Source: Escherichia coli (lineage in GTDB: Bacteria > Pseudomonadota > Gammaproteobacteria > Enterobacterales > Enterobacteriaceae). From it: a DNA stretch of 5,793 nucleotides. The position numbers and the translations under genes were made by a program. Below, in pieces: positions 1-501 of this stretch; within the stretch, counting starts at the first letter, position 1; each line of letters begins with the position of its first letter. The notes below the pieces were generated by a model, which worked only from the letters and a program-made list of their open reading frames with translations, had not been told where the DNA came from and did not search any database. The stretch is taken from the NCBI RefSeq assembly GCF_003334255.1, contig NZ_QOWU01000103.1; one strand, given 5' to 3'.

Positions 1-452
1 GCGCCTCAGCGCGCCGTCGCGTCGATAAAGATTACGGGATGGGGCGAAACTGGTATCTGTTCGAAAAGGGCCGTAAATGGTCTTACAGGGCGATTCGTCA
101 GGGCTGGCCAGCATTCTCACCGTGGCTTGATGCAGTGATTCAGCGTGTCGAAATGTACAACGCATCGCTTCCCGTTCCGCTTTCTCCGGCTGAATGTCGG
201 GCTATTGGCAAGAGTATTGCGAAATACACCTACCGCAAATTCTCTCCTGAAGGCTTTTCCGCGGTACAGGCTGCTCGAGGTCGTAAGGGCGGTAATGCAA
301 ATTCATCAGAAAATCAGGCTATTAAAGGTCAGAAATCAAAGCGTGTAGCCGTTGCCACATCGGCACGAACTCTGAAGCCGTGGGTGACGTTAGGGATCAG
401 TCGTGCCACATACTATCGAAAACTAAAATGTGATCCAGATCTCGCAAAATGA
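1..452 (+). CDS. rep: ColE2-type plasmid replication initiator Rep (plasmid-specific primase), 3' portion. The CDS starts at 5239 and continues across the circular junction; positions 1-2 complete a codon begun at 5716, and the stop codon TGA is at 450-452.
   Basis: ORF 39..452 is in frame with the ORF starting at ATG 5239 once 5717 is equated with 1. The joined product (309 aa; MSAVLQLFREKLPHKPYCTNDF...HAHLLYAL...RATYYRKLKCDPDLAK) matches my recollection of ColE2-P9 Rep almost residue for residue over long stretches. Identification is from memory of the family, not a database search. Confidence 0.88.
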   Translation, partial: ASARRRVDKDYGMGRNWYLFEKGRKWSYRAIRQGWPAFSPWLDAVIQRVEMYNASLPVPLSPAECRAIGKSIAKYTYRKFSPEGFSAVQAARGRKGGNANSSENQAIKGQKSKRVAVATSARTLKPWVTLGISRATYYRKLKCDPDLAK

Positions 453-481
453 GACCAGATAACAAGCCTTATCAGATAACA
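450..481 (+). other. ColE2-type origin of replication (Rep binding and primer-synthesis site), overlapping the rep stop codon
   Basis: Sequence TGAGACCAGATAACAAGCCTTATCAGATAACAGCGCC directly after rep closely resembles the ColE2 minimal origin as I recall it (GACCAGATAA...CCTTATCAGATAACAGCGCC), with a 2-3 nt difference in the middle. Position immediately 3' of rep is as in ColE2 plasmids. Exact boundaries are uncertain. Confidence 0.6.
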
Positions 482-501
482 GCGCCTGTAGGCGTTTTTT
501 T
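482..501 (+). terminator. Hairpin plus T-run downstream of rep and ori; candidate rho-independent terminator and/or AT-rich ori flank
   Basis: GCGCC-TGTA-GGCG stem-loop at 482-494 followed by seven T at 495-501. Confidence 0.45.

Follow-up and report, generated by a model that had tools for sequence, protein, structure and literature searches.

A ColE2 origin is a 32-bp stretch that lies downstream of rep and contains two direct repeats (PMC6856555). What does it mean, then, when a plasmid of this family carries an origin of a different length? The question is raised by a stretch of 5,793 nucleotides (nt) of Escherichia coli DNA (NCBI RefSeq assembly GCF_003334255.1, contig NZ_QOWU01000103.1), which we call the window. 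Here, an initial annotation, made from the letters alone, had noticed an origin-like sequence with a variant spacer at the end of a rep gene, followed by a hairpin and a run of seven T residues (T7). We compared this origin and its Rep protein with about 160 origins of the family. The outcome makes it highly probable that positions 451-485 are a ColE2-type (class C theta) origin with a Rep/origin specificity of its own, and probable that the hairpin and T7 behind it end rep transcription.

The first 77 positions of the window are duplicated at 5717-5793 (repeat analysis), so that the window represents a 5,716-bp circular plasmid read slightly past its own start, with rep running across the junction (Table 1). 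Amino acids (aa) 31-156 of Rep match the Pfam family Replicase (PF03090, E = 3.5e-42), and a weak PriCT_1 match follows at aa 199-238 (E = 0.016); no NCBIfam model matched the window Rep. In a phmmer search, aa 174-306 align with a single 12-aa gap (E = 2.6e-63) to PDB 3VW4, the crystal structure of the ColE2-P9 Rep DNA-binding domain bound to its own origin, and the same structure is the top Foldseek match of a model of the domain (E = 8.5e-13). The origin-like sequence starts at G451, within the TGA stop codon of rep (450-452), just as the initial annotation had it. The locus thus presents the features of a ColE2-type (class C theta) replicon: the initiator domains, an origin at the end of rep, and a core with direct repeats and an AGA that agrees with the reported ColE2 primer RNA ppApGpA.

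The change in the origin had been noticed by comparison with a ColE2-P9 reference sequence. This reference proved accurate, as exact copies of the 37-mer AAATGAGACCAGATAAGCCTTATCAGATAACAGCGCC are present in 45 colicin-type PLSDB plasmids, about 6.7-7.1 kb in size. Among these, pO26_10153_4 (L002) carries the colicin E2 operon and encodes a Rep whose DNA-binding domain equals the ColE2-P9 chain in 3VW4 at all aligned residues except the first. Like the window, L002 and the 44 other plasmids have rep followed directly by the origin, with TGA overlapping it, the left element GAGACCAGATAA, the site GCCTTATC, the right half TATCAGATAACAGCGCC, and a hairpin and T run after the origin. Their Rep lacks, as does the window Rep, a 9-aa insert present in other types, and the recognition helix is shared (the stretch LGISRATYYRKLK is the same in both proteins); over the full length, the two Reps are 85.8% identical (tblastn).

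Against this background of likeness, the small change is a clean 3-bp insertion, GATAA[CAA]GCC, whose exact position could shift by one or two A residues. The window therefore reads GATAACAAGCC, with 35 bp and a 4-nt spacer, in place of the 32 bp with GATAA next to GCC of the ColE2-P9 specificity type, and its direct repeats (9 nt, 17 nt apart) differ from those of ColE2-P9, which read CAGATAA and are 7 nt long and 14 nt apart. Aligning the origins and the Rep C-termini of the family, as had been proposed for a check, showed that the insertion in the origin is matched by one in the protein. Where ColE2-P9 Rep has RGRKGG-T-KSKR, the window Rep has NANSSENQAIKGQ between RGRKGG and KSKR, a net gain of 12 aa at aa 258-270. 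As origin length and Rep linker both depart from that type, the window belongs to the ColE2-type family and not to the ColE2-P9 specificity type. The plasmids also differ outside this module: the window has LysE-family exporter cargo in place of the colicin operon, and a different, shorter MobA.

The position of the extra residues was examined in an AlphaFold2 model of the DNA-binding domain alone (a DNA-free model from a 24-sequence alignment), with a mean predicted local distance difference test score (pLDDT) of 79.8. In this model, Rep 175-256 is predicted to form the helical PriCT module (pLDDT about 90) and Rep 281-303 a C-terminal helical module (pLDDT 86-89), while Rep 256-272 is predicted as coil with pLDDT below 50. 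A low-confidence coil between two confident modules suggests that the 12 extra residues lie wholly in a flexible tether joining the two DNA-binding modules. A full-length AlphaFold2 model of Rep (11-sequence alignment, mean pLDDT 38) was not used.

An assembly or sequencing artefact as the source of the insertion is ruled out, as it is identical in many independent assemblies. A window-type 40-mer is exact in 17 PLSDB records (E. coli and Salmonella), in 15 of 5,426 complete E. coli genomes, where it is always on plasmids, and in seven metagenome contigs (eight loci when the record of the window itself, L001, is counted). Its exact recurrence in so many plasmid records marks the feature as real, rare and stably inherited. 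The plasmids on which it was seen are non-colicin LysE plasmids, multimers of these, and two large plasmids. The apparent multimers hold up to three copies per record (NZ_CP133872.1, 17,158 bp, and NZ_CP166717.1); the large plasmids, NZ_MZ367885.1 (122 kb) and NZ_OZ547118.1 (82 kb), may be cointegrates.

How origin and Rep change together was followed in Rep/origin pairs from 13 further PLSDB plasmids, a one-genome-per-species scan (L015-L027), a metagenome scan (L033-L152), and contigs encoding selected Reps. Across the roughly 160 origins, the left half varies in blocks, each paired with a block of the Rep C-terminus. The type of the C-terminal helix-turn-helix pairs with the leftmost origin element, which in the window, GAGACCAGATAA, is probably the site of the Rep helix-turn-helix, judging by this pairing. 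The 9-aa Rep insert (QYVADTHTPE; DYVDRTHTPE in Aeromonas types) pairs with GCCTATATC, and Reps that lack it pair with GCCTTATC; all 15 enteric-class types conform, as do 17 of the 18 Aeromonas-class types, L087 alone departing. We take this insert and its DNA site to be the "region A" and "site alpha" of Shinohara and Itoh 1996. Finally, Rep linker length goes with how many nucleotides separate the left element from GCC. The right half is the same, TATCAGATAACAGCGC, in all 11 PLSDB plasmids retrieved through Rep or DNA similarity and not by motif, and its 3′ end varies in at least three motif-independent loci (CAGCAC in L028, CAGCGG in L032 and L153); in loci found by pattern scan, the right half was mostly fixed by the search pattern, so that these matches are no test of invariance. 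A third form of the central site, GCCATATC, equal in length to GCCTTATC, was seen in an Aeromonas-type plasmid and a distant enteric-type plasmid (L160, L162), and the right half of L162 reads CAGATAATAGCCCC, departing from the otherwise constant sequence. Immediately downstream of two distantly related Reps (L154, L155), no origin could be recognised, which makes them uninformative.

The pairing of linker and spacer can be put in numbers when residues are counted from RGR to SAR..PW for the linker, and nucleotides from ATAA to CCT for the spacer, leaving out these flanking motifs. Among Reps with an LGISR-type helix-turn-helix (15 distinct Rep/origin types), the two lengths follow a line with r = 0.99 and a slope of 4.4 aa per nt. 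A 9-aa linker goes with a spacer of 0 nt in two types (L032, L153), 13 aa with 1 nt in seven types (including ColE2-P9 and the common TAG-ACCAAATAAGCC type), 17 aa with 2 nt in three types, 25 aa with 4 nt in two types (the window type and L028), and 29 aa with 4 nt in one type (L031). The window lies exactly on the line, since its 3 bp and 12 aa more than ColE2-P9 amount to 4 aa per bp, and of the retrieved E. coli and Salmonella plasmids it represents the long-spacer end of the series. A survey of proteins alone gave 14 distinct LGISR-class linkers, all of 9, 13, 17, 25 or 29 aa, that is, in steps of 4; among the retrieved pairs, no class with a 3-nt spacer and a 21-aa linker was seen.

Other helix-turn-helix classes take the same step. 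Aeromonas-type Reps carry 0, 1 or 2 copies of [RP]IGG on each of five linker tails (series of 15/19/23, 18/22/26, 14/18/22, 17/21 and 15/19 aa), and their origins gain one A before GCC per copy. A fourth class likewise shows +4 aa with +1 nt (L140 compared with L013/L134). In a blind test, the spacer was predicted from the linker alone for five Reps before their DNA was looked at, and all five predictions were correct: 0 nt for the 9-aa linkers of L153 and L163, 1 nt for the 13-aa linker of L162, 8 nt for the 23-aa linker of L159, and 10 nt for the 21-aa linker of L160. The 4-residue units, often GGxK or xIGG, range in number from 0 to 4 or 5. That the linker acts as a quantised molecular ruler, with one 4-residue unit per extra bp between the origin halves, is a plausible if tentative proposal. 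A single universal ruler for all helix-turn-helix classes was considered and rejected: the Aeromonas types have an equal slope and an intercept set by a second variable linker segment. A full-text literature search with the origin string gave no match. The quantitative length rule may be new to the literature, although it, or the window type, may already have been described.

How would such a Rep work on its origin? ColE2-P9 Rep binds its origin and makes a short RNA primer that is extended by DNA polymerase I (PMC4538821); the primer sequence is AGA (PMC5304414). According to PMC5862659, which cites Itou et al. 2015, ColE2 Rep has no helicase domain and unwinds DNA via its PriCT module and helix-turn-helix. 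By analogy with the ColE2-P9 literature, the window Rep, built as an archaeo-eukaryotic-type primase followed by a PriCT module and a C-terminal helix-turn-helix, would bind the origin as a single protein and open it, and would synthesise the ppApGpA primer, 3 nt long, at AGA (474-476) in the constant right half; this primer DNA polymerase I would extend rightwards, away from rep. The constant right half would be occupied by the PriCT module and GAGACCAGATAA by the helix-turn-helix, with the linker reaching across the spacer. The short linker of ColE2-P9 Rep would then not fit the window origin, nor the window Rep the ColE2-P9 origin. It is this longer linker across a longer spacer that points to the window pair as a separate specificity type, in line with the suggestion of the initial annotation that the variant spacer may mark one, and it is borne out, as far as comparison of sequences goes, by the covariation at 4 aa per bp and the five correct predictions. 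In the nomenclature of Hiraga et al. 1994, such a type would be IncB-like, and Reps of the ColE2-P9 type or of the types with one extra spacer nucleotide would be expected to activate it only slightly.

Several points weigh against both the rule and the separate type. Three pairs leave the line: in L031 the 29-aa linker is one unit too long for the 4-nt spacer, in L119 a gain of 3 nt comes with +9 aa, and L087 combines an 18-aa linker with a 6-nt spacer instead of 7 nt. The last also breaks the pairing of insert and site, its Rep having no 9-aa insert and its origin reading GCCTATATC. In the Aeromonas class, the intercept differs between the linker tail series. Moreover, the compared types are related and exchange segments by recombination, so that they are not independent samples. 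The separate specificity is something we infer from aligned sequences, and the recognition helix and GCCTTATC are the same as in ColE2-P9, which may allow partial cross-recognition. Two strains hold a window-type plasmid together with another member of the family, in 2017.06.05CC a colicin plasmid with a ...GCGGAAAATAGCCTATATC-type origin and in F16EC0184 a TAGACCAAATAAGCCTATATC-type plasmid; this speaks weakly for a separate type, because coexistence in one strain depends also on the antisense-RNA (IncA) control type. As for L087, its pair is the second of two origins on a metagenome contig, which may be a cointegrate or contain a non-cognate junction.

Could the 3-bp insertion be neutral, so that the origin is of the ColE2-P9 specificity type and would fire with ColE2-P9 Rep? 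The left element GAGACCAGATAA, the site GCCTTATC, the right half and the recognition helix LGISRATYYRKLK, all as in ColE2-P9, would allow it. However, a neutral insertion leaves aside the matched 12-aa insertion in the window Rep, the family-wide covariation of the two lengths and the five correct predictions, and among the roughly 160 origins there is neither a linker of ColE2 length with a 4-nt spacer nor a long linker with a 1-nt spacer; we consider it improbable. In this family, single-nucleotide insertions or deletions reportedly suffice to change specificity (Hiraga 1994; Shinohara and Itoh 1996). Linker and spacer might also travel together by hitch-hiking, that is, be inherited jointly without structural coupling. 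The rep end and the origin are tightly linked, at most 150 bp apart, recombination blocks are evident, one backbone occurs with different modules, and the KIGGA linker occurs with two helix-turn-helix types. Hitch-hiking predicts neither a constant ratio nor a direction, though, and the step of +4 aa with +1 nt recurs with unrelated linkers (KIGGA in enteric types, R[IV]GG and PIGG in Aeromonas types, VGGK/RKGG in the L013/L134 class) and in different helix-turn-helix classes, beside pairs of -4 aa with -1 nt and of +8 aa with +2 nt. With lengths quantised in steps of 4 and blind predictions that came out right, we think this explanation very unlikely. Least credible of all is a dead or degenerate origin on a plasmid that replicates from another site: the departure from the 32-bp ColE2-P9 length is the one point for it, set against an intact Rep, perfect conservation of 451-485 in independent E. 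coli and Salmonella isolates from several countries, and the absence from the plasmid of a second rep gene or of another origin that could be recognised.

The second element at this locus is the hairpin with its T run (Table 1). It has a 6-bp stem with four G-C pairs and a 4-nt loop, lies 29 nt past the stop codon, and is followed by T7; its 5′ arm is formed by the last 5 bp of the origin. It scores as an intrinsic terminator in a scan of positions 300-800, which gave three terminator-like sites against 0.4 expected from shuffles, and the hairpin lies within the minimum-free-energy fold of 440-510 (-19 kcal/mol, z = -2.1). A hairpin with a stem of 5 bp or more, and with the origin end as its 5′ arm, is present in 70 of 81 distinct family sequences, 48 of the 70 with a T-rich tail, and the stem arms change together between lineages (CGCC/GGCG, GCCC/GGGC, CCCC/GGGG, CGGC/GCCG). 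The initial annotation had offered two roles for this element, a terminator of rep or an unwinding element. The scan score, the conservation and the concerted change of both arms favour the former, and 481-501 is probably an intrinsic terminator of rep that overlaps the origin end, in which case rep transcription would have to traverse the whole origin. A role in the origin machinery, instead of or besides termination (as an unwinding element or as a structure on the displaced strand), is unlikely. It would suit the shared 5′ arm, the position directly in the path of leading-strand synthesis, and the persistence of the hairpin in Aeromonas plasmids despite their weak T run. The canonical hairpin is absent, however, from some natural plasmids, for example the colicin E9 plasmid pACN001-D (L009), which reads CAGCGCTTTTTTGAGC, and L022. 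The 32-bp origin, moreover, reportedly ends at ...CAGCGC (Yagura et al. 2006), a placement that would leave the 3′ arm and the T run outside it. As natural plasmids do without the hairpin, and on this placement of the origin, the hairpin is unlikely to be essential to it. The T tract as unwinding element fits poorly for the further reason that unwinding is reported to be the work of ColE2 Rep itself (PMC5862659).

The nearest relatives show where the separate Rep/origin type of the window stands. The commonest type in our scans, TAGACCAAATAAGCCTATATCAGATAACAGCGCC (L004, L005, L008, L023 and others), is the one that we take to be the ColE3-CA38 type. It resembles the window in its right half and in an origin that overlaps the stop codon (here TAG), and it resembles ColE2-P9 in its 13-aa linker and 1-nt spacer (25 aa and 4 nt in the window). 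Unlike the window, it pairs the 9-aa insert QYVADTHTPE with GCCTATATC, and the helix-turn-helix tail AWYYQLKKRGLVE with CCAAATAA. Types with one extra spacer nucleotide occur both on the LysE plasmid backbone of the window (L006/L007) and on colicin E2/E9 plasmids (L003/L009); they have a KIGGA linker of 17 aa and a 2-nt spacer (AG or AA), compared with 25 aa and CAAG (4 nt) in the window. The backbone of L006 is 96.8% identical to that of the window, with the same helix-turn-helix class and the GCCTTATC site, and here, too, a longer linker goes with a longer spacer.

The 4-nt spacer class is shared by L031/L106 and L028-L030, which are metagenome- or IncFII-associated, have a Rep tail ...RRRANETK, and read GAGACCAAATAACAAGCC or ...TAAACAACC. 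Their linker insert is homologous to that of the window (NRSEVQA[AT]KG versus NSSENQAIKG). They differ in having the 9-aa Rep insert, GCCTATATC, and A for G in the left element (CCAAATAA), and L031 has one 4-aa unit more (29 aa). In L028-L030 (Logan/ENA contigs beside an IncFII repA), the ColE2-type rep is split into open reading frames of 146 and 163 aa, the origin of the 4-nt-spacer class is altered to ...CAGCAC, and the context is a larger plasmid with SSB, TrbM, PilI and IncFII RepA; this is probably a decaying secondary replicon, or a remnant of one. The colicin plasmids sampled have four origin types, namely ColE2-P9-like, ColE3-like, the type with one extra spacer nucleotide, and a ...AAATAGCC type. 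This number agrees with the four IncB types reportedly distinguished in Hiraga 1994, and the window type probably lies outside this classical set.

Where might the insertion come from? Its residues NSSENQAIKG resemble KANSSENQSDKGK in the linkers of L010-type Reps and NRSEVQATKG in L031, and the origins of both classes also read ...AACAAGCC. One LysE backbone, 96-97% identical overall, carries three modules of Rep C-terminus and origin, those of the window, L006 (NZ_CP053240.1) and L007 (NZ_OZ040967.1), which differ in helix-turn-helix type and in linker/spacer class, indicating module exchange by recombination within one plasmid lineage. Together, the shared linker and origin likenesses and the module swaps suggest that the window type is a recombinant mosaic, in keeping with the mosaic replicons of Hiraga et al. 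1994 cited in PMC5304414.

Table 1. Features of the window, with positions on the 5,793-nt stretch
Feature	Position	Strand	Description
rep	5239 to 452, wrapping round the window	+	309 aa
rep, 5′ part	5239-5793	+	ATG at 5239; annotated as replication initiation protein in NZ_AP022820.1
rep, 3′ part	1-452	+	ends with TGA at 450-452; 42-449 encode the DNA-binding domain (aa 174-309)
Linker insertion NANSSENQAIKGQ	294-332	+	Rep aa 258-270, in place of a single T of ColE2-P9 Rep
C-terminal helix-turn-helix LKPWVTLGISRATYYRKLK	372-428	+	two differences from ColE2-P9 Rep (VT for EA)
Predicted replication origin GAGACCAGATAACAAGCCTTATCAGATAACAGCGC	451-485	+	35 bp, the 32-bp ColE2-P9 origin plus 3 bp; aligned with about 160 family origins
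Left element GAGACCAGATAA	451-462	+	identical to ColE2-P9; co-varies with helix-turn-helix class across the family
3-bp insertion CAA relative to ColE2-P9	463-465	+	ATAA-to-CCT spacer of 4 nt (CAAG) versus 1 nt (G)
Two direct repeats CAGATAACA	456-464, 473-481	+	9 nt, 17 nt apart; read from the sequence
Site GCCTTATC	466-473	+	ColE2-type form of the site that alternates with GCCTATATC
Constant right half TATCAGATAACAGCGC	470-485	+	contains AGA at 474-476
Hairpin AGCGCC/TGTA/GGCGTT	481-496	+	terminator scan and fold
T7 run	495-501	+	terminator scan and fold
MobC/"TraD"-like gene	659-1105	-	
mobA	1277-2362		
Hypothetical gene	2383-3099		238-aa product without a family match
LysE-family exporter gene	3157-3729	-	weak homoserine/threonine efflux matches
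Hypothetical gene	3736-4686	-	316 aa; C-terminal part weakly CmoA-like (S-adenosylmethionine-dependent enzyme)

The window as a whole is 100% identical to the complete E. coli plasmid JE86-ST05_p5 (NZ_AP022820.1, 5,716 bp), which is typed as mobilizable, MOBQ and rep_cluster_2141, and near-identical plasmids are found in E. coli and Salmonella from human and water sources. By annotation and family search, rep is the sole replication gene on this 5.7-kb plasmid, and no other origin is recognisable. Rfam gave nothing relevant, with a sub-threshold, unrelated match as the only one in the rep leader (about 5090-5238). The cargo region (2400-4800) has 29-33% G+C, compared with 47-57% in the replication and mobilisation backbone, and a cargo segment of the window is also present on a 103-kb plasmid (H32).

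Two further sites on the plus strand deserve mention. Positions 5055-5082, GGTACGTACAAGAGGAGTTATGGTAAAT, show likeness to the XerC/XerD core of the ColE1 cer site, in what we take to be its sequence. They are probably a multimer-resolution site, as far as this likeness goes, of the kind reported for ColE2-like plasmids (PMC6856555). Some 100-150 bp downstream of the origin, in the leading-strand direction, positions 578-628, GCTCGCCGCAGTCTCAATGACCGAGCGTAGCGAGCGAATGAGCGAGGAAGC, form a candidate PriA-type (primosome) single-strand initiation site for the lagging strand; a single-strand initiation site has been reported in ColE2, as Nomura 1991 is cited in PMC6856555. L031 holds an even closer copy of the pUC19/ColE1-like stretch than the window does. 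At 42 of 51 positions, 578-628 is identical to a segment just downstream of the ColE1 origin, in what is presumably the pUC19 sequence.

ColE2-type origins are the smallest plasmid origins reported (PMC5304414) and serve as compact parts of tunable copy number in synthetic biology (PMC3163176). Their replication mechanism is already known and the practical importance of the present origin is modest. What it adds is that there is room for 3 bp more between the origin halves, provided that the initiator gains 12 aa in its linker. As the match of Rep and origin decides which plasmids of the ColE2 family can share a cell, a rule of 4 aa per bp would be of use in marking origins now missing from genome annotation, and in sub-typing the many "Col156"/ColE2-like plasmids of clinical Enterobacteriaceae by predicted compatibility. 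If the linker is indeed a ruler, the origin type would be readable directly from the Rep sequence, and the family would hold a recipe for mutually orthogonal mini-replicons and Rep-origin pairs; a change in linker and spacer length would then be a simple evolutionary route to new compatibility types.

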